Shown here piece by piece: positions 6,501 through 35,263 of a stretch of 37,232 nucleotides of DNA. The translations under genes and the position numbers were made by a program. Every line of letters begins with the position of its first letter. Within the stretch, counting starts at the first letter, position 1. Source of the DNA: a virus; IMG/VR virus record IMGVR_UViG_3300025637_000004; one strand, 5' to 3'. Under the pieces are notes generated by a model, which was not told where the DNA came from, made no database searches, and saw only the letters and a list, made by a program, of their open reading frames with translations.

Positions 6501-9500
6501 TAGCTTCACCAAATACTACAGCGGTGGCGCTCGGTGTGAATGGAACCCAAGTAGTGTTGTCATCGTATGACCATTGCTGACCTTCTTTTTTTGCAAATAC
6601 TTTATCGACGGCCACACTGTTAACTAAATAAGGCCGCGTATATCCTGTTAAGTCTGCCGGATCTGGGTCATATACTAAAAACCCAGTTGTAGTGCCATTG
6701 CCAGTTAAAATTTTACCCTGAATACTGATCTGCTCGCCGTTGTAACTTATGTATCCAGGGATGTCAGCTGCCTGACCTTCAGCGTTAAAACCATGTATGT
6801 AAATTTCACCGTTATTTGCTGACTCAAAAGTAAGATAATTACTTTTAGCACCAATACTTGGCGAATTTACAGCAGCATTCGCTGGAGGCTTAGTACCGCC
6901 GACTCTGCTGTAATCAACGTTCTGACCTGACCCAAATATAACGTTACCATCGTCGTCTTTAATAGTCAGGTTACGAGTATCAACTTTATCCGAAGTAATG
7001 GTGTTAGCTACCAGCTTATCGCCGGTAATAGTGCCGCCGACAATTTTAGCTGCGGTCACGCTGTTAACTGCGAGTTTATCTGCCGTCACGGCAGAAGCTT
7101 TGATGGCCGAGGCCTCTATGGCGTTAACTGAAACCTTATCCGCCGTAATACTGTTTGCTGACAGCTTATCTGCCGACACCGCACCGCTGACAATTTTATC
7201 GGCCGTAATACTGTTTGCTGCCAGCTTATCTGCCGACACCGAGCCGCTTACAATCTTATCCGCCGCCACACTGTTTGCGCTGAGTTTATCGGCCGAAATA
7301 ACACCACTTACAATCTTAGCCGCCGTAATACTGTTTGCTGCAATCAAATCCGCTGTAATAGCGTTTGCTGCGACCTTCTCGGTGGATATGGCGCTGTTTG
7401 TAATGTCCGTGCCAACGATAGGAAACTTGCCCGATAAGCCAGATAGTGTAACTTCTGCGGCTGTAAGATCGCCATCCAAAGTACTAACAGTACCTGCCAA
7501 TACCTCTAAGTCAGTATCTAAAGTAACTAGCGTTGCTTCTGCAGCATCTAAATCTAACTGAACAGCAGCGATATCGTCTTCGATAGCTGTTAAATCGATA
7601 TTTACACCGACTCCTGTAACTGAATATTGAACAGGGTAATTCAATTCATCAAAGCCCCATTTATCAAAGGCTGCGATTTTAAAATACCAAGCTACGCCAT
7701 CTGCTGTTGGATATTGATAAAGCGCAAAGCCAGCATCCATAGTTGCCAGTGTTGTTAAACTTGGCGTAAAGCCGTTAGTTGTGCTTGCCCAAATTGCAAC
7801 GCCTTGTCTATCTCCTTCCTGTGAGGGCGTCCATTCAATTACCGCTTGTTCTATTCCAGCGGATACAACAACACCTGTTAACTCCGCTACCTGCTCATTT
7901 TTAACCGTGATTTCTGCCGGTAAATTGCTGCGAACATTGTTAGCGTTTACGCCGTAAAGCTTTACGCGCATTTCACGCGATAACCCATTGAGCAAAGCAG
8001 TATCTACATCAAGACTAGTAGTTATACCTGTAACATTTTGCGACCACTTTATTACTGTTGGTGAAGATTCATTAGCATATTCAACATAATAACTTTGAGC
8101 CTGTACCGAATCTGTCCATTCGATATTTAAAACCGAGCTATTGAAAACTCCGCCAACGAGTTGTAAGCCGCTTGGAGTTTCGGGCGCATCAAAACTAGAT
8201 CCAGCCTCAATTTGGAATTCATACCACGCCCCGGTTTCTTCGTCTTGCGCTGCTATACGAATATCAACTGTCGCATTTTTCAAAGCCAATGTTATTGTTG
8301 GTTCAACTACAGTTTCCCGGCCTTCCCAAAGCGCGCCCGCATTGTAAGAATATTCGACAAAATACCTTTTTCCGTTTGGGTTCCAGCTAATTTTTACTAG
8401 TGGGTCTTGCGATGTTCCACCGTAAATAACCTGAACACCGCTAATAGATAAATCTTTGTCTCCCGCTGGGGGTTGTGGTGGTGGCGTTAAGATTGTTCCA
8501 GAATTAATTAGGGCATCGTATTGATGTACCCTCGGATCGTCTAATACCGCCCGTATTTTTACTGCAACTTCGCCCGACCTTGATATGTCTTCGACCAGCA
8601 TAGCGCGGGGAGTTTCTACCCCGTCAGCAAACGCAAAAAAGGTTTTAGTTTTTGCATTGCCAGTGTACAGATATGACGGAATTGAATCAGTTACATCAAC
8701 TTTATAAGGCTGGCCAACAACCTCTGTTACAGCATAAGCGGCCGATCTTGCACCATTATCTGCGCGTAAATAAATAAAATTATTAGAAGCGCCAAATTCT
8801 ACAGGCTCCGATAAAGTGAGCCTTTGACCGCTGACGGCTACAACCTCTCCGCCTTTGCCCCAGTTCATATAATGGCTGACAACTTGTAGCCCGTCTAAAT
8901 ACTGCGGCACCATCCCATCAAGTTCAGTGGTTATTTCTGTTACTATCGTTCTGTATGCAAATCGCGCTGCTAAAAACATACCTTCGCGATTGGCTTGCGT
9001 CGCGTCCGTTAAAAAAGGCATCTTTATTAGCTTTGGCTTTGCTCCAGCCGTACCGGGAATGGCGCATAATATCCGCTCTGGCTTCCAACTCGTTGGATCA
9101 GTATATTCAATTTCGATTGAATCATCCGCCCATTGATCCATCGTCTGAAACGTTACGTTAATTGGTTTGGTGGTGTTTCGGCCGTTCATCATGTAGGAAG
9201 CTTGTGGATTACCGTCATCTCTGACGACTGAAAAATAATCACCAAACTGGACAGGGTGTGAACGACAACTAGAGCAGACTTGTTTCAATGCAGCCCAAAG
9301 GGTTCCTTTCCTATCAAATTGGCCATCATAATAATCGCTTCTTGAGTCGCAAGCATCGGCAACGGCCTTTATTTCTGTTAAATTTAAATTTGAATCTGAA
9401 TAATCACCGCCATACTCTGCCCTTAAAATATTGGCATAAGCCCACATAGGATTTCTAGTTGCTGTTTCAGCAGACCAGACCGTGCCATTCCATATAGGAA

Positions 9501-10665
9501 GCTTGCGAGTAAATTCGCCATTAAACTTTCTTTCAGATTGCGCGCTAAGCTGAGATGTTGCTTTTGCTTTTACCACCCATACTGTTTGCTCAAAAGTAGA
9601 GTCAGTTTCTAAAAATGAACGCAAACCGACCCATACTGCTTTATCGTTAGTTCTAAAATCGTCTTGAGTTAAATTTGTTCTTCGCGCCCTTACCTCATAA
9701 CGCCCTGAAGTAACTGTCTTTTTAACAGTATATCTAAGCGTATCAATTGTGGCTTGTGAATAAGTTTTTGTTGCCAACGACAACCAACTACCAACTGCCG
9801 CGCCAGATCCGTCAATTTCCCGGTACTGGAAAGCTAGGTTTACTGTTCTAGTGCTTAGCCCACCATCATCATCTGATCGTGAAATACCGCGCGGAAATTG
9901 TATATCAACGGCTAAAGTATCGGTCGTTGTTCCCGAAGCGTTTGCAATATAAGGCCCGATCCAGCTAGTATATTCTGGTTCATTTGTTGCAAAAAGATCA
10001 ACTCCAGAACCTCCAACCTCTGAGGCGGTGTAAACATCTGGGCGAAAAAGATCGACAACTTGTCCCGGCTCATAAAGCGCATAAGTAACATCATCAAAAT
10101 TAGAAATATCAGTTTGGCCAATTTTTAAATTGGTGTGATCGTAAGAACCCCAGCCGATTGAAAACGCTTGGAACAAATACTCGTCGTTACCGATATATTC
10201 TTTATATGGCTTGGCGGCCCAATCAGGAAAAACACGCCACCGCCCGTATCTGTCCGGGATAGCTTCGCCTAATCTTGGCGAGTTGCCTTGTGCGTTGACG
10301 CTGTATGACGGCGACTGATTTTCTTGAGTGGTTGCGTCGTCGGGTACGTTAATTAATGTAGTTGCCGCTACTGCAACTGCAACTGCAACTATAACAATAT
10401 ACAACCATGTCAAAGGGTCTAAGCCTTGTGGTCGACTAGCAATTATTAACCTTTGATTTTTGTGTATTACAGTATCTTTCCACTTTTCAGCTTCTACATA
10501 TTCGCCGTCTAAAAGGACAACAATGGGTTGCTCTTCTCCGCTAACGAAGTTTGTTGTGTTGTTGGCGACAAAATCATGTACAGATTGACCGGCTGGTATT
10601 TCCTGCCAATCAAAATTAGCGCTAAACGGGTCTTTAAGAATTGCTAAGAATGCTGTCATGTACAT
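3565..10665 (-). CDS. Giant host-specificity / central tail fibre protein: gpI-like N-terminus fused to a gpJ-like body, FN3 domains, coiled coil, decapeptide-repeat fibre, three jelly-roll (CBM-like) modules and a C-terminal receptor-binding domain
   Basis: 2366-aa uninterrupted ORF. Elements, in order:
- A hydrophobic segment LTWLYIVIVAVAVAVAATTLI at about residue 85-105.
- The J-type motif PRLGEAIPDRYGRWRVFPDWAAKPY.
- FN3-like segments (ISWNPNGKRYFVEYS.., NIEWTDSVQAQSYYVEY.., VIEWTPSQEG..).
- Repeats of the type ADKIVSGSVSADKLAANSIT.
- Recurring GTKPP linkers.
- CBM4_9-like starts NLVANASFDEGLQNISFW and NLIRNAELGG. Confidence 0.85.
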   Translation of the reverse strand: MYMTAFLAILKDPFSANFDWQEIPAGQSVHDFVANNTTNFVSGEEQPIVVLLDGEYVEAEKWKDTVIHKNQRLIIASRPQGLDPLTWLYIVIVAVAVAVAATTLINVPDDATTQENQSPSYSVNAQGNSPRLGEAIPDRYGRWRVFPDWAAKPYKEYIGNDEYLFQAFSIGWGSYDHTNLKIGQTDISNFDDVTYALYEPGQVVDLFRPDVYTASEVGGSGVDLFATNEPEYTSWIGPYIANASGTTTDTLAVDIQFPRGISRSDDDGGLSTRTVNLAFQYREIDGSGAAVGSWLSLATKTYSQATIDTLRYTVKKTVTSGRYEVRARRTNLTQDDFRTNDKAVWVGLRSFLETDSTFEQTVWVVKAKATSQLSAQSERKFNGEFTRKLPIWNGTVWSAETATRNPMWAYANILRAEYGGDYSDSNLNLTEIKAVADACDSRSDYYDGQFDRKGTLWAALKQVCSSCRSHPVQFGDYFSVVRDDGNPQASYMMNGRNTTKPINVTFQTMDQWADDSIEIEYTDPTSWKPERILCAIPGTAGAKPKLIKMPFLTDATQANREGMFLAARFAYRTIVTEITTELDGMVPQYLDGLQVVSHYMNWGKGGEVVAVSGQRLTLSEPVEFGASNNFIYLRADNGARSAAYAVTEVVGQPYKVDVTDSIPSYLYTGNAKTKTFFAFADGVETPRAMLVEDISRSGEVAVKIRAVLDDPRVHQYDALINSGTILTPPPQPPAGDKDLSISGVQVIYGGTSQDPLVKISWNPNGKRYFVEYSYNAGALWEGRETVVEPTITLALKNATVDIRIAAQDEETGAWYEFQIEAGSSFDAPETPSGLQLVGGVFNSSVLNIEWTDSVQAQSYYVEYANESSPTVIKWSQNVTGITTSLDVDTALLNGLSREMRVKLYGVNANNVRSNLPAEITVKNEQVAELTGVVVSAGIEQAVIEWTPSQEGDRQGVAIWASTTNGFTPSLTTLATMDAGFALYQYPTADGVAWYFKIAAFDKWGFDELNYPVQYSVTGVGVNIDLTAIEDDIAAVQLDLDAAEATLVTLDTDLEVLAGTVSTLDGDLTAAEVTLSGLSGKFPIVGTDITNSAISTEKVAANAITADLIAANSITAAKIVSGVISADKLSANSVAADKIVSGSVSADKLAANSITADKIVSGAVSADKLSANSITADKVSVNAIEASAIKASAVTADKLAVNSVTAAKIVGGTITGDKLVANTITSDKVDTRNLTIKDDDGNVIFGSGQNVDYSRVGGTKPPANAAVNSPSIGAKSNYLTFESANNGEIYIHGFNAEGQAADIPGYISYNGEQISIQGKILTGNGTTTGFLVYDPDPADLTGYTRPYLVNSVAVDKVFAKKEGQQWSYDDNTTWVPFTPSATAVVFGEAITTSRDNVASASAWGYGRSPASIVDPNATEGATWGNNVTGQPSDTELSASTGMLETFQYDSISELPWTGLSNGAGELELTIAAGGEVGGKVLQIGNNSGNDEAWLVFNKSIPYNPSKIYRIAFRVKRLSGTGFLYLGVSGRNATDTNWVNKNGAASYSSQHYFAASGATPGTEWVTYVGFFSGSNTTGNGVTTNSYDSPATLHEDAKYFRPHFIVNYNDAPGQVQVDGVVVEVLSANPDATVGADSSNLAVGSGLNLVANASFDEGLQNISFWQPGPVTVGLDYSPSTTLKNGHTVFVQQASTNPDPNQLTNINFGTLGSTDNTPVTIGERLEGSLYVGALRCEAVLLVVWLSSTQVYLSSTTIETIYPDEASGGTDIDGYKRMGGFVTVPNIADVSYGRLCIQKKGTESGSVDSFLYATRPMLARAFTNQTELSEWNPGTTKTNWENIPERPDASALLNNLQTFGDIQGDKPHIDADVTSANIAAGFADQGSLASLNSVAYSSNFITGTKPPSDAEANVGPNLIRNAELGGPKTPASSTASQVVEGWTHYTNNVSESYVKNATVSEIPPWGKLDQRIFHTAITATLSGATGRWTTAATIPIDITKNYNLSGWFRSVSGDGRVYLRLQCVTASGSSAAYQYLQTLSNTPITSTWTRYDKAFGPQGEQNFSSDTVAAFVQVYVGYAQISVTQGAGFVLNEGLTPQKIDAIEKFPLSYLSTVDYSSNFISGTKPPSNATAGATWGSNIGGQPSNNALLNSNQNYSDVTGGPPTNADNTGSNTALNVVGQTDFATLSQINADNISTYISGAAIDTAQIKTAAIGTLQIENNQTIFIPKLVAFNAAIHTLYAYYPDTYFFQNLPHTVTTFSFANAMAQTSVMLNVRFNGNLQKVGFIRDWRVILLRKIGSGDFVKIGNISNLSPPAGDYEFDVWFTDNPGAGTVTYAVGTELTGDWNFSIGYTVGYFRTNCSGQIVLMGGKR
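7021..7400 (-). repeat. In-frame tandem repeats of 30/60-bp period, encoding about 14 decapeptide fibre repeats
   Basis: The sequence rows 7141-7200, 7201-7260, 7261-7320 and 7321-7380 align column by column (for example cgccgtaatactgtttgctg.cagcttatctgccgacacc...). They translate to ...SADKLSANSITADKIVSGAV... on the minus strand. Confidence 0.85.
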
Positions 10666-22142: not shown

Positions 22143-22613
22143 TTATTTCTTTTTATTGCCCTTCATAAATGCAGATGCCGCGTCCTCTTCTTCTGGCGCT
22201 ACAGTGCTAACTTTAGTACGACTAGAAGGCGTCATGCCAAACTCAACAAGCAAAGCTTTCATCTGATCAAAAGATTTATTGCTGATTTGAAGGTACGGAG
22301 ATTGAACCGGGAAACCAGACGGAGCTTTTATAACTGGGCCATACTTCGCTAGACTTTGATTTGCAGTCTGCCATCGCGCAAAAACTTCGCAGTACATCGC
22401 TAATGCATGAGTATCAAGATTAGTTAATACCTCAGCCTCTCTAAGCTGTTTTGAAACTATGGCCCAACATTTCTTAGCTCCATCACTTAAATGATCAGGC
22501 ATTTTAATCGCGTCGGCCTTTGGTTTAGCTTCGTTTTTAATCATCCTGCTCGGTTGTGCGGTTCCGGTGAGCAGCTTTAGTGCTGTGGGTTTGGGCTTTC
22601 TTCCTGCGGCCAT
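22143..22613 (-). CDS. terS: Terminase small subunit, P27 family
   Basis: The N-terminus MAAGRKPKPTALKLLTGTAQPSR and overall size match the P27-family small terminase. Confidence 0.85.
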   Translation of the reverse strand: MAAGRKPKPTALKLLTGTAQPSRMIKNEAKPKADAIKMPDHLSDGAKKCWAIVSKQLREAEVLTNLDTHALAMYCEVFARWQTANQSLAKYGPVIKAPSGFPVQSPYLQISNKSFDQMKALLVEFGMTPSSRTKVSTVAPEEEDAASAFMKGNKKK

Positions 22614-23365
22614 TACGCTGCCCCTTCGTTTATTTGGAGCGTGCGGGTCGGCGTCACACCGCCGCTGTGCTGCTGGTCGCAGCCATCGCTTAACTTCACA
22701 CGCTTTAAACCTTTGTACATTCCTGCGCCCATATCTTCAATTTTGGAGAATGGCAAAATAGGAACCGTTAATTTTTCTTGGTATGATTTATCGATGAAAT
22801 AAACATACCTAAGTTGAAACCCTGGAAGCAGCTTGGCCCCGGAATCCATAGCAATGCGGCTTCCAAACTTACCTCCGGAGGAATTGTTAGGATTATCTAG
22901 CGATTTCTTTGCAACTATTTTTCCATTCGGCATCTTGAGCATTTGTGTGTTTTTCTTAATTCCTGTTAAGCAGAAACCACTCGCCCGATATATTGTTCCG
23001 TCTCCACATTGCGCCCCATCGCTAAAACTAATAATCCACTTTATATTATTGTATCTTTTTTTAATCAATCTCATCGCAAACCCAATAGCGCGAGATTCGC
23101 TGTATTTTGGTAGCGCCTCACTGAATGCCATTCGATTCAATTCCATAAAATCATTCCAGAGCGTCCCATCAACCAATTTTGATGTTTTTCGAATATCAAT
23201 ACTAACTCCGAACTGCATAGCCCCCTCTAGTTTCCCATTAAGAAAAACTCCCAGGTGAAGACGGCTATTGTTTACAATCTTCCCGCTATAGTGAATTTTC
23301 TTGATAACCGCGTTCGCTGCGGCTGCGGTGATCGGCTTAATAATAATATCTTTTGCGCTAGGCAT
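22613..23365 (-). CDS. Mom-like GNAT-fold protein (putative DNA base-modification enzyme)
   Basis: Motif series IKKIHYSGK..LGVF..G.LEGAMQFG...ELNRMAF...P.YSESRAIG...IISFSD...GDGTIYRASGF..TG....RYVYF. This matches the phage family that RefSeq labels as Mom family adenine methylcarbamoylation protein (from memory; not searched). Confidence 0.5.
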   Translation of the reverse strand: MPSAKDIIIKPITAAAANAVIKKIHYSGKIVNNSRLHLGVFLNGKLEGAMQFGVSIDIRKTSKLVDGTLWNDFMELNRMAFSEALPKYSESRAIGFAMRLIKKRYNNIKWIISFSDGAQCGDGTIYRASGFCLTGIKKNTQMLKMPNGKIVAKKSLDNPNNSSGGKFGSRIAMDSGAKLLPGFQLRYVYFIDKSYQEKLTVPILPFSKIEDMGAGMYKGLKRVKLSDGCDQQHSGGVTPTRTLQINEGAA

Positions 23366-23981
23366 TTTGCGACTCTAACCACTGATTACAGATAAAAGAT
23401 ATTGCGTTACCGTTGCTGTTATCATTTATCCCAGTGTCTGAAATTGGGTTTGTCCTGGCCAATGTTACAGCTTCCTCAACATTTTGCGCTTGTTCATCGT
23501 GGAGGGTAAACGTTCGTTGCTGGAATGGATCTCGCCCGCCGTCGGGTAATTCAGGAAGACCCGTTTCAATATCAACTAGCTTACTAATAACGTCCTCGTC
23601 AAACCCCAGGAGCTCCAAATCAAAATCAAATTCTTTCAGGCTGTCAACTTCCAGCCTTAGCGCATCCAAATCCCAACCAGCATTGAGCGCCAATTGGTTG
23701 TCAGCGATCACGTACGCTTTTCGCTGTGACTCCGACATATGCGAAAGGTTAATAGTGGGAACTGAACCCAGCCCCAGTTTCTTCGCAGCCAATAAACGCC
23801 CATGCCCTGCAATGATTCCATTATCACCATCAACAAGAATTGGGTTCGTAAATCCAAACTCCTTAATGCTTGAAGCGACCTGCGTTACCTGTTCATCGCT
23901 GTGCGTTCTAGAGTTTCGAACGTAGGGAATCAAATCCGCTGTCGGCACATATTTAATGGTTAGTTCGTTATTATTTTCCAA
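23358..23981 (-). CDS. ParB/Srx-like N-terminal (nuclease) domain protein
   Basis: TTG start with SD GGGGG. The motif LIPYVRNSRTHSDEQVTQVASSIKEFGFTNPILVD..GIIAGHGRLLAAKKLG, followed by the linker GWDLDALRLEV..L.EFDFDLELLGFDEDVI, is the form seen in ParB-methylase fusions. Confidence 0.8.
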   Translation of the reverse strand: MENNNELTIKYVPTADLIPYVRNSRTHSDEQVTQVASSIKEFGFTNPILVDGDNGIIAGHGRLLAAKKLGLGSVPTINLSHMSESQRKAYVIADNQLALNAGWDLDALRLEVDSLKEFDFDLELLGFDEDVISKLVDIETGLPELPDGGRDPFQQRTFTLHDEQAQNVEEAVTLARTNPISDTGINDNSNGNAISFICNQWLESQNA

Positions 23982-28003: not shown

Positions 28004-28435
28004 CTATTGCGGTTTAAGTTTTCCCGTTGAATACCAATATTTTACATTGAAATTCGGGCAAGTTTTTTTGTCATCTAGCTGATAATGGCCGACAAGCTGA
28101 GCTTTTGACCATTGCGGAATACTTTTTATAAAGTCTATTTCTTTTCTTAAAGTTATTAGCTGAGACTCATGAAAATTTCGGGAACCCATTAGGCAAATCC
28201 CAATGCTACGAGTGTTATAGCCTCTTACATGAGCGCCGTTCCAAATCTCTCCGGTGTCGGGAAAGATTGGACGACCATGATAAGACTCGCCGTTTTCGTC
28301 TATTAAAAAATGATATCCGATTCCGTCGAATCCTTTCTGCTTGTGCCATAAATTTACAGCTCCCGGGCCATCGAATCTTCTATCGTCTAAACCGTTAGGC
28401 GAATCGCTACAGTGAATAACGATATACTCGATCAT
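28004..28435 (-). CDS. Endolysin: N-acetylmuramoyl-L-alanine amidase (Amidase_2 / T7-lysozyme-like)
   Basis: IVIHCSDSP...GYHFLIDENG...GAHVRGYNTRSIGICLMG....GHYQLD..KTCPNF carries the Zn-ligand pattern of the PGRP/Amidase_2 fold. Confidence 0.85.
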   Translation of the reverse strand: MIEYIVIHCSDSPNGLDDRRFDGPGAVNLWHKQKGFDGIGYHFLIDENGESYHGRPIFPDTGEIWNGAHVRGYNTRSIGICLMGSRNFHESQLITLRKEIDFIKSIPQWSKAQLVGHYQLDDKKTCPNFNVKYWYSTGKLKPQ

Positions 28436-28734
28436 TTAACAGATCGCTCGATTAGCCTATCTAGTTTTGTATCGAGTTTATCGAGCTTTTCACCCTGCTC
28501 GCGTCTTAATTCTTTGATAGAGTTTTCAAGCTTAGTGTCAGTTTTCCCTTGGTGGGTCTCGACGTAAGCAATTCTGCGGGAGTGCTCATTCTGTATTGAT
28601 CTCTGAACTGCTGAATCTTCTTTTATATTTGTTACGAAGACTATGCCGCTGATCATCATGCCCGCGACTGTCAAAAGACTAATACCCTGCACAATGTCAT
28701 GTAAAAACCACGATTTTTTTTCATCAGTAGGCAC
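28432..28734 (-). CDS. Single-TM membrane protein with a C-terminal coiled coil (holin candidate; first gene of the late operon)
   Basis: GTG start, one TM segment (GISLLTVAGMMISGIVFVT) and a 4-nt overlap with the endolysin gene. Confidence 0.4.
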   Translation of the reverse strand: MPTDEKKSWFLHDIVQGISLLTVAGMMISGIVFVTNIKEDSAVQRSIQNEHSRRIAYVETHQGKTDTKLENSIKELRREQGEKLDKLDTKLDRLIERSVK

Positions 28735-28767
28735 TTTTTTTAACGTCCGTAATTTTATTTCAGGTAC

Positions 28768-28793
28768 AAAAAAAGCCGCCCGAAAGCAGCTTT
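28768..28793 (-). terminator. Intrinsic terminator directly upstream of the late operon (tR'-like)
   Basis: The minus strand reads AAAGCTGC-TTTCGG-GCGGCTTT followed by T-run TTTTTTT. On the plus strand the stem has a C-A mismatch, so it is specific to the minus strand. Confidence 0.6.
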
Positions 28794-28828
28794 AAGAATT
28801 TATTGTGAAATTTTCACCAATTTACATA

Positions 28829-28857
28829 AATGTAGCACTATATCGGACGGGTGACAA
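28829..28857 (-). promoter_or_regulatory. Candidate late promoter (PR'-like)
   Basis: Minus strand: TTGTCA (28857-28852), N17, TACATT (28834-28829). The predicted start lies about 30-50 nt upstream of the terminator at 28768-28793. Confidence 0.4.
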
Positions 28858-28925
28858 GTCTTTTTTACAGTAAAAAAGCCAGCAGAATAAAGAGTACCCT
28901 TGCAAGGGGGGGGTTAAATGCGGAC

Positions 28926-29036
28926 AGGCTGGCCAGCCTAAGGTGTAACAGGTAGGAGGCTGGCCAGCCTAAGGTGTAACAGGTAGGAGGCTGGCCAGCC
29001 TAAGGTGTAACAGGTAGGAGGCTGGCCAGCCTAAGT
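28926..29036. repeat. Tandem 31-bp repeat (3.5 units) carrying four copies of the 14-bp palindrome AGGCTGGCCAGCCT
   Basis: The GGCTGGCCAGCC cores lie at 28927-38, 28958-69, 28989-29000 and 29020-31, exactly 31 bp apart. The unit is GGCTGGCCAGCCTAAGGTGTAACAGGTAGGA. Confidence 0.95.
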
Positions 29037-29046
29037 TGTCTAAAAC

Positions 29047-29098
29047 GCTGATTCTAGTCAGAATCAGCACTTGCATTGTTACCGGAAACAACTATAAT
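29047..29098 (+). promoter_or_regulatory. Operator-like inverted repeat plus a near-consensus sigma70 promoter for the + strand island
   Basis: GCTGATTCT-agtc-AGAATCAGC (29047-29068). The -35 is TTGCAT (29071-76), then N16, then the -10 TATAAT (29093-98). Confidence 0.65.
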
Positions 29099-29141
29099 GT
29101 ATCTACCAACTCAGGAAAACACACAACAGGAAGCAAGAAGC

Positions 29142-29363
29142 ATGAATAACTACACTAAAATGAAGACGGACAGCTTGTATACAAAACAGATAGCGCAAGC
29201 GCGGGCGGGAGTAGGCGAGAGCAACGAGTTCTTGAGGGCTTTCTACTTAGATTGGGTCAACAATTTTCTTACGGTAGGTAGTTTCTGCGAGCACTATGGG
29301 ATAGAGGATATAAACGTAGGCAGGGAGGTAATTAATCTAGGTCGAATACTCCACGAAGAATAG
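29142..29363 (+). CDS. Hypothetical 73-aa protein (island gene 1; possible HTH at the C-terminus)
   Basis: ATG at 29142 with SD AGGAAG 8 nt upstream. The track's TTG start at 29076 lies inside or upstream of the promoter. The segment SFCEHYGIEDINVGREVINLGR looks helix-turn-helix-like. Confidence 0.6.
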   Translation: MNNYTKMKTDSLYTKQIAQARAGVGESNEFLRAFYLDWVNNFLTVGSFCEHYGIEDINVGREVINLGRILHEE

Positions 29364-29504
29364 AGAGTGCGGTGCAGGTCAAACGACGCATTAAACTGAT
29401 GGGATGGACTATCGTTCATCTTAGGCTGGCTAGCGAATTCCATTGTACCATCGAGCAAGCCTAGCAACTACTGCCCTTCTGGGGCTAACTAAAAGGAATA
29501 CATT

Positions 29505-29726
29505 ATGTCTATTCAAGCAAATTTTGATCAGCAAGCAATTGACCTGCTACCTCGCATTAAAGCAACGATTGATTCATCGTCTGAGCATGAAGCCAGCCAG
29601 CGTCGAAACGCAGCACTTCGTTTAATCAACGATAGCGTCAAACCGATCAGTGAAATGACTGCCACCGAGATTACAGCTTTTGAAGACTCGGTAAGTGAGT
29701 ATTTTGACTTTATTGAAAAACAATAA
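29505..29726 (+). CDS. Hypothetical 73-aa acidic protein (island gene 2)
   Basis: SD AAAGGA precedes the ATG. 13 D/E against 7 K/R by my count. Confidence 0.65.
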   Translation: MSIQANFDQQAIDLLPRIKATIDSSSEHEASQRRNAALRLINDSVKPISEMTATEITAFEDSVSEYFDFIEKQ

Positions 29727-29778
29727 CCTTTAACAACTGCTGAATAAGCAGCTCAATCTAAACTAAAAGGACTACATT

Positions 29779-30210
29779 ATGAACACTGCAAAACAAATAC
29801 TCGTCGCTAAAGAATTCGTCGAATGCCACAAAATATCAGACATCGATGAATGGCAACCTTTGAATCTTAGCGGTGACGACAAGCTGATCACTATCTACTA
29901 CAACATAGTAGGCGGAGTGTATGGAGAAGTCCGAGACCTAGAAATTGAAATTAGCTCATCGGATAGCAAAAGTGGCAACCCTATTATCTTTGATTGGAGC
30001 GACAAAATGACTTATCAAATTGGCGACACTAATAACGGCCCATTTTCTGATGTTTATCCCTATCTTCCTGCTGCTCTAGAAGAGCTAGACAGACTCAACG
30101 ATGAAAAGGAAGCGTTCGAAGCTGGAATGATCGCCGAAGGACTGGAAGACAGCATCGATGATGAATTCTATTACTTCATAGCGGATGCTGAAACCGGCGA
30201 AGAAATATGA
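29779..30210 (+). CDS. Hypothetical 143-aa strongly acidic protein (island gene 3; DNA-mimic / anti-defence candidate)
   Basis: Same SD context as gene 2. 33 D/E against 9 K/R by my count. No recognised motif. Confidence 0.7.
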   Translation: MNTAKQILVAKEFVECHKISDIDEWQPLNLSGDDKLITIYYNIVGGVYGEVRDLEIEISSSDSKSGNPIIFDWSDKMTYQIGDTNNGPFSDVYPYLPAALEELDRLNDEKEAFEAGMIAEGLEDSIDDEFYYFIADAETGEEI

Positions 30211-30359
30211 CTAGCACCGAGAGAGTTGCCAAACACCGCGAAGCCGCCGCAGCAGATGGAAGAAAGAGAAAAGAGTATCTAGTTACTGATACCGAGCATA
30301 ATGCACTGAAAGCATTGCTTGCTGAACTTCGTAATAAGGCTACGAAGACCAGCGTTTAA
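30207..30359 (+). CDS. Small 50-aa protein (island gene 4; possible DNA-binding regulator), absent from the ORF track
   Basis: The ATG overlaps the stop of gene 3 (ATGA). Translates to MTSTERVAKHREAAAADGRKRKEYLVTDTEHNALKALLAELRNKATKTSV. Its 3' end overlaps the convergent minus-strand gene by 20 nt. Confidence 0.5.
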   Translation: MTSTERVAKHREAAAADGRKRKEYLVTDTEHNALKALLAELRNKATKTSV

Positions 30360-30762
30360 CAATATCTTTAAAAAAGTCACTTCGACTAATCCAAGTTTCT
30401 CTATACGCGGATTTGCTGATACCTAAAATATCGGCCTCCGCTTGCTGACTTAAAAGAACCTCTGAAGTATAAGGTTCTAGCGCAATTAACGCCATTTCTC
30501 TTGATTTATCCTTAATCTTCCAATTCTTTGCTGTGCAATGCCTTTCTACCTCTACGGCCAACATCACTATCAAGTCCTTGTGGGCAGCCTCGCTGCCGTT
30601 AGCCGCCGCTCTTATATCAATGTACTGCTTTGATTTGCTTTGACTAGCTAGGCTTGTATGAGGCTCCTTAGACTTCAAATCTGGTCTAGTCTCAGTGCCT
30701 TGCGCTGTACGCCCAAAATTAAACTGTAAATGACTTTTAACTCTTATCGACCTAAAAGTCAT
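30340..30762 (-). CDS. Putative late-gene regulator at the lambda Q position
   Basis: Last gene of the early minus-strand operon, after NinG and a micro-ORF. The C-terminus SQQAEADILGISKSAYRETWISR is HTH / sigma-region-4-like. The family was not recognised. Confidence 0.3.
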   Translation of the reverse strand: MTFRSIRVKSHLQFNFGRTAQGTETRPDLKSKEPHTSLASQSKSKQYIDIRAAANGSEAAHKDLIVMLAVEVERHCTAKNWKIKDKSREMALIALEPYTSEVLLSQQAEADILGISKSAYRETWISRSDFFKDIVKRWSS

Positions 30763-30890
30763 TCACTACCCCTGCGCAACTCATTGTTAAACCAATCTCG
30801 CCAAAACTCATAAGCGAGCCAACGGTTATTTTGCTTGGCATTGTTAGCACCGTTAAAATAATAATCAATGCAGTGCGCGTTATTGATCAT
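30759..30890 (-). CDS. Micro-ORF (43 aa) coupled on both sides
   Basis: The ATG overlaps the ninG stop (ATGA) and the TGA overlaps the next ATG (ATGA). Translates to MINNAHCIDYYFNGANNAKQNNRWLAYEFWRDWFNNELRRGSE. Confidence 0.45.
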   Translation of the reverse strand: MINNAHCIDYYFNGANNAKQNNRWLAYEFWRDWFNNELRRGSE

Positions 30891-31303
30891 CCTACTACCC
30901 TGTTTTCGTGATAACGAATCTGATCTTTGAATTCCTCGGCCATTTCAGCCAATTCATCCCGCGTGTATTTTTTGCTCTCGTTTTTCAGCGCATTCAATTC
31001 ATGCACAAACTCTTTTCCGTACATATCAATCATAAAAAGCGTGTAAGGAATCGGATTGCCTTTTAGATATCCGTTACACCCCTTGCATTGCGGCCAGATA
31101 TTTTCTTTCATCAGCCGTGTCGCAGTGTATCTGCGCGATACAAAATGCCCGCCGTCTAACTCTTTGTAGTGCTTAGTCGTTCCACACGTAACGCAACTGC
31201 AATATCCGTTATCGTCTGAATTCTCTAGCCTTACCAATTTTTGTAGTAAAACGGCGACATCTTCGGAGAATTTTGCGACTGATTTTAATTTTCGCTTAGG
31301 CAT
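30887..31303 (-). CDS. ninG: NinG/Rap-family recombination endonuclease
   Basis: CSCVTCG....DGGHFVSRR.....EN.WPQCKGCN matches the NinG zinc/HNH-like signature. Position after NinB, as in lambda. Confidence 0.75.
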   Translation of the reverse strand: MPKRKLKSVAKFSEDVAVLLQKLVRLENSDDNGYCSCVTCGTTKHYKELDGGHFVSRRYTATRLMKENIWPQCKGCNGYLKGNPIPYTLFMIDMYGKEFVHELNALKNESKKYTRDELAEMAEEFKDQIRYHENRVVG

Positions 31304-31746
31304 TATTTAGAGTCTTCAATAGTTTGATTTTTAGATGGAAAGATAACGCTTACGCCTAATTTGCCTGCAGTGTGACGGTTAAGCGTTTCATAAACTTTTG
31401 CAACCTCTTCAACTTCTAACCCTGCTGTCGATGATTTATTGAGCATCGCAACCTGAATAGGCCGCCACAGAAACTGCTTTACTGTCATTTGATGCCAAGG
31501 GATATCAGCTTGTTTGCTGAGTGTTTTTTTCATATCCCAGCCCGCATCATTCAACGCTGTAGCCAGCAAATCACAAAACTTGTGTATTGCCCGATTCTGC
31601 AAAGCAGTCCTTTTTGAACGATCACCCTTAACTTCACAAACTAAAGTTTTAGCATCGCCAATTGCTTTAACATCCTCTAAATCCATCGGCGCAAAAGCCT
31701 CAACCCCCCCGACTTTTCCAACACTGACAAGAATTAACCTACTCAT
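31303..31746 (-). CDS. ninB: NinB/Orf-family recombination mediator
   Basis: RSKRTALQNRAIHKFCDLLA and NKSSTAGLEVEEVAKVYETL parallel lambda Orf RSLDQNRKLWACL and GQSTSRMRVGEFAELLELI (from memory). The ATG at 31746 is preferred over the GTG at 31761. Confidence 0.6.
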   Translation of the reverse strand: MSRLILVSVGKVGGVEAFAPMDLEDVKAIGDAKTLVCEVKGDRSKRTALQNRAIHKFCDLLATALNDAGWDMKKTLSKQADIPWHQMTVKQFLWRPIQVAMLNKSSTAGLEVEEVAKVYETLNRHTAGKLGVSVIFPSKNQTIEDSK

Positions 31747-32143
31747 TATTTTTATCCGCACTATTTAACACTGTTTTATAAACCCGTCCTTTATAACAGC
31801 GAAATCTATGCTCTTTTGTCCTTACCTCAAAAGTTGAATGCTTGTTAGAATTTATTAGCTGGTAAATATAAACTCTAACTGTCAAATTATAATTATTTTC
31901 AAACATTATCTGCCCAATAATATCTAAAAAAGTATTTTCGTGATTAATTAAATGAGCAACAACCAGTTTTTTATTTCTGTATTTCTGTTCATAAAAAGAT
32001 TCACCTTGAAACCCCTCAAAATAAGAAAGCCTTGTGTCAATTTTAAATTGATCTGTTTTACAAATAATGCCCGCTATACCATCTTGTAAATTGCCGACAC
32101 TTTGCCCTATTGCGTTTGTTCTAGCTCTAGCCGTTTCTGTCAT
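31739..32143 (-). CDS. Orphan 134-aa protein in a strongly AT-rich segment
   Basis: ORF with coupled start and stop. The rows 31801-31980 contain 19, 14 and 14 G+C per 60 nt, against 32 per 60 in row 32161-32220. Confidence 0.55.
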   Translation of the reverse strand: MTETARARTNAIGQSVGNLQDGIAGIICKTDQFKIDTRLSYFEGFQGESFYEQKYRNKKLVVAHLINHENTFLDIIGQIMFENNYNLTVRVYIYQLINSNKHSTFEVRTKEHRFRCYKGRVYKTVLNSADKNNE

Positions 32144-32223
32144 TTTTCCTCCACCAGCGCGGCGGCTTTCTTCAGAAAACCGGACAGTGTGTCGGCAGAA
32201 TTAACGCGCCAGTATTCACCCAT
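32140..32223 (-). CDS. Micro-ORF (27 aa), coupled on both sides
   Basis: TAATG overlap with the methylase-like gene stop and ATGA overlap with the next gene. Translates to MGEYWRVNSADTLSGFLKKAAALVEEK. Confidence 0.25.
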   Translation of the reverse strand: MGEYWRVNSADTLSGFLKKAAALVEEK

Positions 32224-32818
32224 TACACAGCACCCCATTGAGCCGCCATAGCATCTGCCAGACCTTGATACGTTGTGCTGCGGATCTTCCAGCGATCCTT
32301 GCTAGGCGGCAGATAATGCAATCTTTCTCGTTGATTTTTTGGCAGCTTCATCATCGCTTCTTTGACGTTGTTGGTTGCCTGGATCGGTTCCAACCCTTTC
32401 AACCAAAGGCACGTCGCTTTCTGCTCAGGGTGACCAAACATATAGGGCTGAACAACCTGGCTTTGCTTGACCCTTCCGATCAGGGCTTTTGAGTATTTGT
32501 GCATGACTGGATTTTCTATCGCCACCTTTGCGATTGGCGCAGTGAGTAATTGCCTAAAAAACTCTCCCCTTCAAACAATTTTGGCCAACGGCTAGTGTCT
32601 TTGTGCAAGTGTTGAACACCAGAATTAGCAAGATAGGTGCACGGCGGATGCGCGATCATTAAGTCCCAGCCATCATTGATAATATCGAACACGTCCCCCT
32701 GGTGGTGGTTGCCCTCAATGTCCGTCGGCAATAGATCACAACTCCAGGCCTCATGACCCTGTTTAGCAAACGCTTCTCGAACTCGACCAGAATATTCACA
32801 AGCTACCAACACCTTCAC
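32223..32818 (-). pseudogene. DNA cytosine-methyltransferase-like gene split by a frame break at a homopolymer (sequencing error, phase variation or -1 frameshifting)
   Basis: GTG at 32818 with SD GAGGA 5 nt upstream. Frame A reads MKVLVACEYSGRVREAF...DLMIAHPPCTYL...LFEGESF. Frame B reads FFRQLLTAPIAKVAIENPV....RSTTYQGLADAMAAQWG. The two frames join if the A6 run at 32556-32561 were A7. Confidence 0.55.
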
Positions 32819-32828
32819 ACCGCAATCC

Positions 32829-32993
32829 TCATTTCGTTCTCCTGTAAAATTCATCCGTGGTGATTGATTTACCAAGTCGTAACTCTTCCCGCGATAAACT
32901 ATCAAGATCGTACGCCCGCTCTCGTCGTGAGATTCGCGCTAACATTTCTGCTTCTTTTAAATCCAATGGAAATAATCGATCTGGCTTTAACAT
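32829..32993 (-). CDS. Small 54-aa protein, absent from the ORF track
   Basis: The ATG overlaps the upstream stop (TAATG). Its stop lies just before the methylase SD. Translates to MLKPDRLFPLDLKEAEMLARISRRERAYDLDSLSREELRLGKSITTDEFYRRTK. Confidence 0.45.
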   Translation of the reverse strand: MLKPDRLFPLDLKEAEMLARISRRERAYDLDSLSREELRLGKSITTDEFYRRTK

Positions 32994-33307
32994 TATTTGA
33001 TAACCTGCAAAATCCGACGATTATCAACGCCGGGAGTTTCTTTAATTGTTTTATCGCTCTTTAATTTCTTAACGACCTTTTCAATAACTTGAAACTCTAC
33101 GTTAGTTGCATCTTTTATTTCATTGCGAGTTGCCCCACCGTCACGAATAATATTCAAAACCTTGGCGGAAAAACCGACGTATGATTTTTTTAATTTAGAA
33201 ACATCTACCTCATAACTGATTATTTTTCCGTCACCGCGAAGCAAGCTATCTATTAGCTGGCAACGATTACGACAATCGCGCTCTGCATGTTCTTGAAAAG
33301 TTATCAT
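32993..33307 (-). CDS. Winged-helix-like small protein, paralogue B
   Basis: Shares the pattern RC.LI..L.G......SYVG....N.I......TR.E......i....V..L..D.TI with the upstream gene. Confidence 0.55.
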   Translation of the reverse strand: MITFQEHAERDCRNRCQLIDSLLRGDGKIISYEVDVSKLKKSYVGFSAKVLNIIRDGGATRNEIKDATNVEFQVIEKVVKKLKSDKTIKETPGVDNRRILQVIK

Positions 33308-33630
33308 TTTGAAGCCCTAAAAATATGGTGTGAATTTTTCTTATAGTCTTCAACGATAGTGCCATCAGCAATTAATCTATTGACGCTATCGCGTATATCC
33401 ACCCAGCAAATATCGATTTTTTCAACTAGCTCTTTACGAGTTATCTTTTCACTTTTCTGAATAACATTATTAATTCTGTATAAAACGCCGACATAACTTC
33501 TTTTGCCAAAAAATGGAGTAGTATTTTCTTTTGAGTTATTCCCTGACAGGCAATTGTTAATCAATTTACATCGATCAAGAGCTTCTGAGCTTTCCTGTGT
33601 TTCGCTGTTATGCCTCATAAATAACCCCAA
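33304..33630 (-). CDS. Winged-helix-like small protein, paralogue A
   Basis: DRCKLINNCLSG...RSYVGVLYRINNVIQKSEKITRKELVEKI......VNRLIADGTIVE. It is in tandem with its paralogue. Confidence 0.55.
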   Translation of the reverse strand: MGLFMRHNSETQESSEALDRCKLINNCLSGNNSKENTTPFFGKRSYVGVLYRINNVIQKSEKITRKELVEKIDICWVDIRDSVNRLIADGTIVEDYKKNSHHIFRASK

Positions 33631-34399
33631 TTTTCTTAGGTTGGGTAATCGAGTCGGCCCAACTTCTATCGGTTAGATTTTCAAAGGTTGTTTTTCTCTC
33701 CGCTATTGCGGGCAACCTATGATTAATCGCATCTTCCCAGCGTTCACCGTTTAAATACGTCGTTGGGTGCATTTCTGCAAAACCGAGTTGATTAGAATTT
33801 AGCCTAGCCTTCACATCAATAATTAGGATCTCTGTAAAGCTCGCCGCGTCCGTTTGTTTTTTTAAAAGATTGTTGAATAGGGCCAAGGTTTTCTTTTTGT
33901 TAACCTTACGAATGCCAGACCGCCAAAATTGCTCGAATAATTCAAGGTCAATCGAAGATTGATCAAGTGTTTTAATAATTGGTTCTTGGTTATTGGTTAT
34001 TGGTTCTTGGTTATGAACACGTGTTGAACGAGATTTAACACCTGTTGCTTTTTTCCTTAGTTCTTCTGATTTCTTTCGCCTTGCCTCTGCGCTTGCTATA
34101 CCCGCTCTGGCCTTGGCCCCAATGTTTGCGCGGTATTTGGTAATTTCTTCATCGCAGCGAATATGAAAGTAACCATCGTCTGAAATTTCAAAAAACTCAT
34201 CTAAAATATCAATAAGCGCGTTTTTTTCATCATCGACAAAACAAAGCAGGCGCTTTGAAAGCTTATCGATATTGGTTATTAGTGGTAACTCCGTGTCGTA
34301 ATAGTGTTCTATTGCGTCTCTGTAGACGCTACGTTCAACGCGTGTTAAATGGCGGGTTGCATTGTTAAAATCGCTAATATGGTGAGGATAAAATTTCAT
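33608..34399 (-). CDS. DUF1376 (YdaU-like) replication initiation / primosome-recruiting protein
   Basis: The N-terminus FYPHHISDFNNATRHLTRVERSVYRDAIEHYYDTELPL is the DUF1376 signature. The C-terminus FEQFWRSGIRKVNKKKTLALF....TTYLNGERWED is typical of phage replication proteins. Confidence 0.75.
   Translation of the reverse strand: MKFYPHHISDFNNATRHLTRVERSVYRDAIEHYYDTELPLITNIDKLSKRLLCFVDDEKNALIDILDEFFEISDDGYFHIRCDEEITKYRANIGAKARAGIASAEARRKKSEELRKKATGVKSRSTRVHNQEPITNNQEPIIKTLDQSSIDLELFEQFWRSGIRKVNKKKTLALFNNLLKKQTDAASFTEILIIDVKARLNSNQLGFAEMHPTTYLNGERWEDAINHRLPAIAERKTTFENLTDRSWADSITQPKKIGVIYEA
33979..34013. repeat. Five head-to-tail heptamers TTGGTT(C/A) inside the replication gene (candidate iterons)
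   Basis: The plus strand reads TTGGTTC TTGGTTA TTGGTTA TTGGTTC TTGGTTA. It encodes NQEPITNNQEPI in the interdomain linker. Confidence 0.9.
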
Positions 34400-34542
34400 T
34401 TATCGCCCTCCACCGCAGATTTTGTTAATTTGCGCCTTAACGATTCTCTGCAGCTGTCGCAAAATGCGCGGCCTGCATTCTGTTGATCAGACGTAAGCGT
34501 TAACCCGCAAAATTCGCAATCTGTAAATCTTCTATCCTTCAT
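34396..34542 (-). CDS. Small zinc-ribbon protein (48 aa), absent from the ORF track
   Basis: SD AAGGA precedes the ATG at 34542. Translates to MKDRRFTDCEFCGLTLTSDQQNAGRAFCDSCRESLRRKLTKSAVEGDK, with CxxC...CxxC. The TGA overlaps the replication-gene ATG (ATGA). Confidence 0.55.
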   Translation of the reverse strand: MKDRRFTDCEFCGLTLTSDQQNAGRAFCDSCRESLRRKLTKSAVEGDK

Positions 34543-34566
34543 GTTATTATCCTTCTCTTGTGTGAT

Positions 34567-34602
34567 TGCCCCTGCGTGTTCGCAGCACTGGGGGCATTTT
34601 TT
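34567..34602 (+). terminator. Hairpin plus T6, terminator-like only on the + strand (antisense to the early operon)
   Basis: TGCCCC(TGCG-tgtt-CGCA)gcactgGGGGCA followed by TTTTTT. On the minus strand no U-run follows the hairpin. Confidence 0.35.
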
Positions 34603-34636
34603 CTCTAAAAAACTCTAAATATCCCCTCTTTTATCT

Positions 34637-34852
34637 CTAATCGTTATTGGCGCTGAACCGCGCAAATCCGTAAGCTATTGTGAAAGCGTCAGGTTTTAGC
34701 TCATAAATTAGTTTCAAAGCCTGTTTTTCAGGTATCGGGCCTTCAGGCCACTGAGACACAGCGCCCTTTGTTATTGATAATGCTTTTGCAAGCTTCGACT
34801 GACTGCCGTATAAACTAATTGCTTGGATTTTAGTAATCTGGGTTTTTTTCAT
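34637..34852 (-). CDS. Cro/YdaS-family HTH protein (lytic-side regulator)
   Basis: YGSQSKLAKALSITKGAVSQWPEG.IPEKQALKLIYELKPDAF matches the YdaS/Cro pattern. It is divergent from the cI-like gene. Confidence 0.75.
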   Translation of the reverse strand: MKKTQITKIQAISLYGSQSKLAKALSITKGAVSQWPEGPIPEKQALKLIYELKPDAFTIAYGFARFSANND

Positions 34853-34899: not shown

Positions 34900-34939
34900 A
34901 CAAATTGATTAAAATACAATTTTGAAGAGTGTTACCATA

Positions 34940-35263
34940 ATGACCAAAGGCGAGAGAATTAAAAGCGCGAGAAAAAGTCTAGGATTGAGCCAAGAGTCGC
35001 TGGCTAAAAAGATAAAGGTAACTAAGGGCGCTATCTCTCAATGGGAAAACGACATAACTGTAGCATCAGCTGAAAGTTATTTGTCTATAAGTGAGGCAAC
35101 CGGGTACTCGCACAGGTGGTTAGTTAGAGGGCTTGGGCCAGAGGCAGAAGAAAGCAGATTATCGGCAGAGCATAAAGAATATCTCGAAAACTGCACAGAT
35201 TTGCAGGTTTCCTCACTTTTAGCATCTATAACTTCGCGGCTAACAAAGGATACTCAGCAGTAA
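34940..35263 (+). CDS. XRE/cI-like HTH repressor (no S24 peptidase domain)
   Basis: ERIKSARKSLGLSQESLAKKIKVTKGAISQWENDIT is a classic HTH_3 motif. The ATG at 34940 is preferred over the TTG at 34922. Confidence 0.8.
   Translation: MTKGERIKSARKSLGLSQESLAKKIKVTKGAISQWENDITVASAESYLSISEATGYSHRWLVRGLGPEAEESRLSAEHKEYLENCTDLQVSSLLASITSRLTKDTQQ

Follow-up and report, generated by a model that had tools for sequence, protein, structure and literature searches.

Why should four small genes of a lambdoid phage be read against all of their neighbours, and from what looks like a promoter of their own? The question is posed by positions 29047 to 30359 of the IMG/VR virus record IMGVR_UViG_3300025637_000004, a stretch of 37,232 nucleotides that was analysed at its full length and is called the window below. 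An original prediction, made from the sequence letters, had proposed that this island is an autoregulated operon devoted to anti-defence or lysogenic conversion. Our analysis agrees with it as far as the layout and an association with the anti-restriction protein ArdC are concerned; none of the products, however, matches a known anti-defence or conversion protein. That the island is a real, variable accessory operon we regard as very likely. By analogy with operons in which anti-CRISPR (acr) genes are accompanied by an anti-CRISPR-associated (aca) gene, we give a probability of about one half to its being a self-regulated operon for counter-defence or host interference; a strictly anti-defence role of the cargo is somewhat more doubtful. 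The acr-aca-type reading is favoured because several traits come together: a candidate promoter of its own, palindromes at this promoter, a putative mini-repressor as the terminal gene, turnover of the cargo, acidic soluble products, cassettes shared with other replicons, and an ArdC neighbour in another phage.

The window is the genome of a temperate siphophage with a lambdoid organisation. In addition to integrase, CI-like and Cro genes, it encodes a DUF1376 replication protein, a NinB-like gene, NinG, an amidase and Rz-like spanins (Pfam and PHROG profile searches). The minus strand holds every long open reading frame (ORF) at 2805-28734 and 30340-34852. Between them, with minus-strand early genes (NinB-like, NinG and a protein of 140 amino acids (aa)) on one side and a minus-strand lysis cassette (Rz-like spanin and amidase) on the other, the four ORFs of 73, 73, 143 and 50 aa lie on the plus strand and span 29142-30359, so that the reverse-oriented four-gene island first described is confirmed. 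Coordinates of the features discussed are collected in Table 1.

The island genes can be considered real, because the AT skew switches sign with the coding strand across the island and because genes 2 and 3 are, as judged from aligned homologues, under purifying selection: among homologues 75 to 91% identical, the ratio of non-synonymous to synonymous substitution rates (dN/dS) is 0.16 to 0.50 for gene 2 and 0.16 to 0.32 for gene 3. For gene 4 it is 0.48, a value drawn from eight differences only. An ATGA overlap joins genes 3 and 4. The G+C content of the island (0.40 to 0.46) equals that of the backbone, and the cargo proteins are all soluble and mostly acidic, with neither signal peptide nor transmembrane segment (maximum Kyte-Doolittle value over 19 residues below 1.2). 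Genes 2 and 3 are preceded by a near-identical 21-nt leader with its ribosome-binding site, AACTAAAAGGA[A/C]TACATTATG (window 29487-29507 and 29761-29781), and a small hairpin placed before each of these two genes moves with the cassette into other replicons. A structured RNA in the gap between genes 1 and 2 (z = -0.85), or in the leader of the candidate late promoter described below (z = -0.56), was considered and dropped, the folds not being significant; an Rfam search over 28300-31000 returned sub-threshold chance matches only.

The content of the island differs from phage to phage. Sister phages share a common backbone (spanin, amidase, island, 140-aa gene and NinG) and carry differing islands, with four compositions of 4, 4, 5 and 9 genes, all ending in gene 4. 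The order gene 1, gene 2, gene 3, gene 4 is that of the window and of L001 to L006. In L022 and L023, an unrelated 50-aa gene is followed by genes 2, 3 and 4, and in L033, genes for 69 and 83 aa are followed by gene 2, a gene 3 devoid of its N-terminal domain, and gene 4. L035 and L036 have nine genes, of which the last three are again gene 2, gene 3 without the N-terminal domain, and gene 4; the contig of L034 stops inside the island, and the last eight of the nine genes are visible. The slot has a fixed right end, made of gene 2, the C-terminal module of gene 3, and gene 4 with its 20-nt overlap of the 140-aa gene. Its left end, the control region, is fixed as well, and it is the promoter-proximal cargo that varies. 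Variable cargo next to a conserved putative regulator is a trait by which acr-aca operons are recognised. About 10 alternative cargo proteins were collected from the sister islands; they have no Pfam or PHROG assignment, all are soluble and most are acidic.

Parts of the island are also found on other replicons. In a plasmid-like replicon that encodes ParB and an RPA-type initiator, gene 3 (85 to 91% identity) and gene 2 (75 to 85%) stand beside the initiator, and gene 3 is there ATGA-coupled to a 55-aa protein that is Cro-like by eye and has no Pfam match. A phage with a family A DNA polymerase has gene 2 in its replication region, followed by a remnant of gene 3 of 36 codons. In an unrelated phage (L009), gene 3, this time without a coupled regulator, belongs to a reverse-oriented island of eleven genes that occupies the equivalent slot, between holin-like/terminase genes and replication genes. 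The island of L009 includes ArdC (phrog_7245, 'anti-restriction protein', 2.7e-61), and its last gene is similar to helix-turn-helix (HTH) repressors. IMG/VR and JGI metagenomes, scanned for gene 2, gene 4 and the promoter, yielded one further short locus only. At the end of contig L028, from the family A DNA polymerase phage, positions 1-254 are about 98% identical to window 28819-29138, yet gene 2 is only 81% identical; this match of the control regions is due either to recent recombination or to a chimeric assembly.

Transcription of the island would start at a candidate sigma-70 promoter that had been described as near-consensus. Its elements are present where they had been placed, and the -10 is perfect; but the -35 agrees with TTGACA at 3/6 positions only, the spacer is of 16 nt, and a consensus scan missed the site. 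Since TTGNNN-N16-18-TATAAT is found once in the window against about 2.2 expected (both strands), the motif alone is not beyond chance. What argues for a promoter is that the motif falls between genes, in a region of 407 nt, and is conserved in five other variants of the island. The control region was aligned among six variants (window, L001, L022, L028, L033 and L035), to which all statements on its conservation refer. No variant departs from TATAAT at the -10, and at the -35 either TTGCAT or TTGTAT is found. The spacer sequence TGTTACCGGAAACA does not change either; the 2 nt beside the -10 do. The leader GTATCTACCAACTCAGGAAAAC stands before three different first genes. Gene callers begin gene 1 at the ATG at 29097 (88 aa); as the stretch starting there is this common leader, 29142 is the better start.

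The inverted repeat said to precede the promoter is present, with its perfect 9-bp arms (repeat A). Its core, ATTCTGA-N-TCAGAAT, is conserved across the six variants, and in L022 and L028 it becomes a perfect 11-1-11 palindrome of 23 bp. With the imperfect palindrome that fills the spacer, it provides the candidate promoter with conserved inverted repeats in all six variants, another trait of acr-aca operons. The idea of a separately promoted, reverse-oriented accessory operon is supported, as is that of conserved palindromes in its promoter region. The array of four palindromes ahead of the promoter was also found as reported. Its copy number is 4 in the window, 2 in L001 (5211-5253), 1 in L022 (4753-4763), 2 in L028 (109-150), 2 in L033 and 1 in L035, in control regions that are otherwise near-identical. 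Metagenome contigs L003 and L004 stop within the array. Three possible roles of the array were rejected: a cos or pac site, as the terminase genes are 6 kb off with an HNH gene beside them; a replication origin, as separate 7-bp iterons lie inside the DUF1376 gene; and attP, as the integrase is at the opposite end of the window.

The operon had been expected to include a small autoregulator, and its last gene does resemble one. Gene 4 matches NCBIfam NF041430 'plasmid repression protein F' (E=4.5e-6), residues 4-48 of 50 being aligned with profile positions 18-62 of 68. According to a passage in PMC2200642, which cites Maeser et al. 1990, the F-repressor of plasmid RSF1010 autoregulates promoter P4 of the operon encoding F; the names protein F and F-repressor are linked in PMC5820359. 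Gene 4 is, as stated earlier, rich in lysine and arginine (K/R) and ATGA-coupled to gene 3. It is not net neutral, though: with 11 K/R against 7 aspartate or glutamate (D/E) residues and an isoelectric point (pI) of 9.9, it is clearly basic. Overall, the balance tips slightly in favour of gene 4 being the repressor of the island operon. A tblastn search with gene 4 found no match in plasmids or phages.

Gene 1, the other regulator proposed at first, is replaceable cargo and not the likely regulator. The HTH-like segment seen at its end has no Pfam HTH match, and the protein matches PHROG families of unknown function only (phrog_26669, 1e-6); its C-terminal 40 residues resemble small proteins, annotated as hypothetical, from phages of Vibrio, Serratia, Xylella and Erwinia. 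It is swapped for other genes in L022, L028, L033 and L035. Gene 2 has no detectable relatives outside cassette copies that are at least 75% identical, tblastn included.

Gene 3 is the largest product and, as had been counted, strongly acidic (33 D/E against 9 K/R, pI 4.05). It is made of an N-terminal domain (residues 1-75), called the N-domain below, and an acidic C-terminal module, the C-module (residues 78-143; 19 D/E against 2 K/R in 66 residues). The C-module also exists as a stand-alone 73-aa protein (P0007, L033 and L035), and the gene 3 that lacks the N-domain is an in-frame deletion, in which MNTAKK is fused to residues 78-143. The N-domain is a member of a family with 109 representative clusters. 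Most of the proteins stand alone and measure about 80 aa; the median pI is 4.6, the shared pattern is HK...W.P...KLL.IY.NL..G.YGE...EIEI....S..GNPI.F.W, and the genes map to the early or accessory parts of phage-like contigs. Metagenomes are the only source of the family so far. The family was not found in Pfam, GenBank phages or PLSDB, nor gene 3 in GTDB representative genomes; tblastn with genes 2, 3 and 4 and with the N-domain consensus against phages and/or plasmids gave no match. Some members precede a small, putatively DNA-binding gene, be it gene 4, the 55-aa protein judged Cro-like by eye, or HicB, and some may be fused to an N-terminal ribbon-helix-helix (RHH)- or HTH-like segment, with weak matches only (E 0.02-0.09). 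In L014 (1679-2288), a stand-alone member of 91 aa is directly upstream of a HicB-domain gene, where hicA normally sits.

Could gene 3 be a DNA mimic, a possibility raised with the island itself? AlphaFold, given an alignment of 49 sequences, reached predicted local distance difference test (pLDDT) values of 93-98 over residues 1-70 and a low confidence for the C-module; a first run with 7 close homologues had given a pLDDT of 61. As modelled, the N-domain is a small alpha/beta unit and not an elongated mimic. Foldseek comparisons of the model with PDB and BFVD found no fold like Ocr or ArdA and nothing with E<0.4, which is a weak test for the C-module with its low pLDDT; a PDB profile search was empty as well. 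It is conceivable, though on balance unlikely, that the N-domain defines a large family, carried by phages and plasmid-like elements, whose members inhibit bacterial defence or other host functions, with gene 4 as a new Aca-type class related to RSF1010 repressor F and with transcription of the slot also running antisense into a putative late regulator.

In the mechanism that we propose, host RNA polymerase would transcribe the island from its own promoter, away from the late promoter and toward the early-right operon. At its 3' end the operon keeps gene 2, the C-module of gene 3 and gene 4; its 5' end is exchangeable, being occupied here by gene 1 and in sister phages by between one and six different small genes. 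Gene 4 would most likely bind repeat A and/or the spacer palindrome and so, like the Aca proteins of anti-CRISPR operons, silence the operon once a first burst of expression is over. The small, soluble, acidic cargo would most likely inhibit host defence or other host proteins, an activity that may be useful to any incoming mobile element.

Several observations weigh against this mechanism. Genes 1 to 4 have no match among known anti-defence, defence, DNA-mimic or lysogenic-conversion proteins (Pfam, PHROGs, NCBIfam, PADLOC and PDB sequence searches; Foldseek of gene 3 against PDB and BFVD), and the link to anti-defence is made by association, mainly with one ArdC neighbour. The score of gene 4 is 26.6 bits, when the curated cut-off of NF041430 is 100, so that it falls below the equivalog threshold. 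L028 retains the promoter region, and no gene 4 is present within its contig. Matches to the promoter consensus are no commoner in this region than in shuffled sequence, and a terminator scan called no terminator after gene 4. Finally, the centre of repeat A is of 4 nt in the window and of 5 nt in the other variants, a one-bp difference that is easily reconciled with a hairpin but suits a dimeric operator badly. Repeat A is either an operator or a weak terminator for read-through from the early operon, and it may be the latter.

The region on the other side of the island promoter has to be considered before alternatives are weighed. The intergenic region 28735-29141 carries two divergent control regions, and at both promoters a perfect palindrome ends 2 nt from the -35 (28860-28878 and 29047-29068). 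The hairpin at 28772-28793 is the best terminator-like structure of the region and lies about 35 nt downstream of the candidate late promoter. Together they resemble lambda pR'-tR', which suggests, by analogy, that this is where late transcription starts. But for two single nucleotide polymorphisms, 28819-28925 is invariant among the six variants, while coding regions differ by 3 to 19%. A homopolymer of eight G (28906-28913) lies between the divergent promoters and is a possible slippage site. The original prediction had placed the island in the classic moron slot between Q and the lysis genes, the one used by stx. The island would not be in a slot of this type, because it is upstream of the putative late promoter and terminator, and not downstream as stx is. 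Nor does its neighbour qualify as a recognisable Q regulator: the 140-aa protein matches no Q family in Pfam or PHROG, and more generally has no match in Pfam, PHROG, NCBIfam, PDB or GenBank phages (tblastn for the last). Its place after NinG and the promoter-terminator pair downstream are all that suggests a late-regulator role. Between the 140-aa gene and NinG, a PAPS-reductase-like gene (phosphoadenosine phosphosulfate; 255 aa, phrog_424, 1.5e-24) replaces the 43-aa ORF of the window in L035 (4453-5220), L034 (2627-3394) and L036 (4101-4868), and marks a second variable spot.

How else could such an island be explained? Repeat A is the element for which another role is hardest to dismiss. 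It could be no operator at all, and instead an intrinsic terminator that stops minus-strand read-through from the early-right operon and shields the late promoter region. Its minus-strand RNA folds at -12.9 kcal/mol (z = -2.4; -14.9 in L022) and is followed by GUUUUAG; the core of the stem is conserved while the length and sequence of the loop vary, and a plus-strand A4 run is retained in all variants. This role we still consider the less probable of the two, though a serious one: there are only four U residues, the terminator scan made no call, and, with 1.3 kb between the repeat and the last early gene, antisense transcription would traverse the whole island. Moreover, the form found in L022 and L028, a perfect 23-bp palindrome abutting the -35, is typical of operators. 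As for the operon itself, it might be a lysogenic-conversion moron, oriented like the CI-like gene, active in the prophage, set apart from the lytic operons, and beneficial for example by superinfection exclusion. Lambda bor, lom and rexAB are genes that benefit the lysogen, and bor is, like the island, reverse-oriented beside the lysis genes. Integrase, CI-like and Cro-like genes mark the phage as temperate, and the island has its own candidate promoter in an orientation opposite to the lytic operons. Yet gene 2 is found in the replication region of the family A polymerase phage, and genes 2 and 3 beside a plasmid-like initiator; most exclusion and conversion proteins of this slot are envelope proteins, whereas signal peptides and transmembrane segments are absent here; and the G+C content is that of the backbone, with no flanking terminator. 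We therefore regard a moron of this kind as unlikely.

A third scenario makes the island a timing device, whose transcription would run antisense into the 140-aa gene, as lambda paQ does on Q, with gene 4 and/or the 140-aa protein acting on the shared array to tune the switch from early to late expression. The geometry fits: gene 4 converges on the 140-aa gene with a 20-nt overlap and no terminator, at a junction identical in all variants, and the array and palindromes lie between the candidate late promoter/terminator and the island promoter, next to the almost invariant 28819-28925, though coding regions differ by 3 to 19%. For core regulatory genes, however, one would not expect the upstream cargo to be freely exchanged and present in unrelated replicons, nor the array to vary from 1 to 4 copies without any other change, and the 140-aa protein lacks a family match; the scenario seems improbable. 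Least probable is a toxin-antitoxin or abortive-infection-type system made of genes 3 and 4, in which a small DNA-binding antitoxin is coupled to an effector. It would account for the ATGA coupling, for the 55-aa protein (Cro-like by eye, no Pfam match) or HicB-domain protein that the gene 3 family precedes elsewhere, and perhaps for the RHH- or HTH-like N-termini of some members, which are weak matches (E 0.02-0.09). But a pI of 4.05, or 4.6 as the family median, is atypical of toxins, gene 3 of L009 is without a coupled regulator, the N-domain is deleted in L033 and L035, most family members stand alone in early regions of phages, and neither PADLOC nor toxin families gave a match.

With regard to the phage itself, its HK97-type large terminase is 53% identical to counterparts of Proteus, Providencia and E. 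coli phages, and the closest prophage matches of this protein, from Providencia, are only 54% identical. Identical copies of the phage are present in marine metagenome assemblies (ENA, JGI and Logan), and none was found among isolate phages, plasmids or GTDB genomes (the DNA of the island was searched for near-identical matches in GenBank phages, and gene 3 in GTDB representative genomes). We infer that the host is a marine gammaproteobacterium. There are no tRNA genes in the window. A Mom-family protein (250 aa, PF25680, 2e-52) is encoded directly downstream of a ParB_N-domain protein (207 aa) on the minus strand at 22613-23981, adjoining the small terminase; this probably represents a module for DNA modification (anti-restriction) that is distinct from the island. 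Within the DUF1376 replication gene, ATTGGTT is repeated 5.3 times in tandem (33978-34014), and these repeats are probably the iterons of the origin. Tandem repeats of 60 bp and 30 bp occur at 7135-7371, inside a gene for 2366 aa (3565-10665) that is presumably the tape measure gene.

Table 1. Features of the island, of its surroundings and of the phage genome (positions in the window)
Feature	Position	Strand	Remarks
Gene 1	29142-29363	+	73 aa; exchangeable first cargo gene
Gene 2	29505-29726	+	73 aa; acidic, pI 4.5; mobile cassette
Gene 3	29779-30210	+	143 aa; pI 4.05, net charge -24; two modules
Gene 4	30207-30359	+	50 aa; basic; conserved terminal gene, candidate autorepressor
Candidate sigma-70 promoter, TTGCAT-N16-TATAAT	29071-29098	+	-35 at 29071-29076, -10 at 29093-29098
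Inverted repeat A, GCTGATTCT-agtc-AGAATCAGC	29047-29068		perfect arms, 9-4-9
Imperfect palindrome, TGTTACC/GGAAACA	29077-29090		6/7 pairs; fills the promoter spacer; second operator candidate
Tandem array, 31-bp period x 3.7 copies	28926-29039		four perfect AGGCTGGCCAGCCT palindromes; chance expectation, 0.09 matches
Degenerate inverted copy of the array motif, CATCTTAGGCTGGCTAGC	29417-29434		in the gap between genes 1 and 2; 89% complementary
Small hairpin, CTGCT-GAATA-AGCAG	29737-29751	+	accompanies gene 3; weak, z = -1.6; kept in L007 and L028
Palindrome CCCTTGCAAGGG running into G8	28897-28913		L022 has A+G7
A+T-rich perfect palindrome, CTTTTTTAC-A-GTAAAAAAG	28860-28878		2 nt upstream of the minus-strand -35; UP-element-like; invariant in six variants
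Candidate late promoter, TTGTCA-N17-TACATT	28829-28857	-	TG-extended; divergent from the island promoter
Hairpin resembling an intrinsic terminator	28772-28793	-	tR'-like; 9 pairs then TTTTTTT; -10.9 kcal/mol, z = -2.9; just upstream of the lysis cassette
140-aa gene	30340-30762	-	convergent; 3'-terminal 20 nt shared with gene 4 in all variants
Integrase	1543-2496		
CI-like gene	34922-35263		
Cro	34637-34852		

The kind of element described here is already known; what is new is the regulator resembling F-repressor, the N-domain family of gene 3, and gene 2. If the cargo does serve counter-defence or host interference, then gene 2, the N-domain family, the C-module of gene 3 and the sister-island genes, about 10 in number, become candidates, and gene 4 would be a new type of regulator for guilt-by-association mining in marine phages, where annotation is almost nil. 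If it has no such role, the slot is one more moron hot spot. In either case, natural variants offer ready comparisons: cargo genes are exchanged, the N-domain is lost by an in-frame deletion, and the array has 1 to 4 copies.

Compared with the DNA mimics Ocr and ArdA, gene 3 has the acidity (net charge -24 over 143 residues; 19 D/E against 2 K/R in the C-module) and the sharing between phage and plasmid-like elements. It differs in having no similarity of sequence or fold to them, with a C-module that is modelled at low confidence. With lambdoid morons such as lambda bor and stx, the island has in common that accessory genes with their own candidate promoter are inserted between the nin/Q-position and the lysis cassette; like bor it is reverse-oriented, and, as for lambda paQ, its transcription would converge on the gene in the position of Q. 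It departs from stx morons by lying upstream of the candidate late promoter and terminator, where stx lies downstream, and from lambdoid morons generally by a G+C content that is not deviant and by the lack of a flanking terminator, the moron combination of promoter, terminator and foreign composition being absent. Its products are cytoplasmic rather than envelope proteins or toxins, and its neighbour is not a recognisable Q.

The regulator has its closest known parallel in repressor F of RSF1010. Gene 4 aligns with it over 45/50 residues, is likewise very small and basic, and is likewise encoded inside the operon of which repression is proposed. At 26.6 bits against 100, it would be a distant relative at best, and it belongs to an accessory operon of a phage, whereas F belongs to a replication operon, E-F-repA-repC. 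The acr-aca operons, including those with an Aca14 regulator of the RHH type, differ from the island in several respects: no known Acr or anti-defence homologue was recognised among genes 1 to 4 in the library searches given above, gene 4 resembles repressor F rather than any described Aca family, and the main inverted repeat is upstream of the -35, not over the -10 or the transcription start. The likeness nevertheless extends to most of the layout. As in these operons, a short run of small, mostly acidic, unannotated genes follows a candidate promoter with conserved inverted repeats, variable cargo is combined with a conserved small gene, putatively DNA-binding, at the 3' end, cassettes are found in phages and in plasmid-like elements, relatives lie beside ArdC, and the gene 3 family may include fusions of regulator and inhibitor. 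Known anti-defence operons share this layout, including regulators other than HTH proteins (RHH) and regulator-inhibitor fusions (PMC13551039, PMC7648647).

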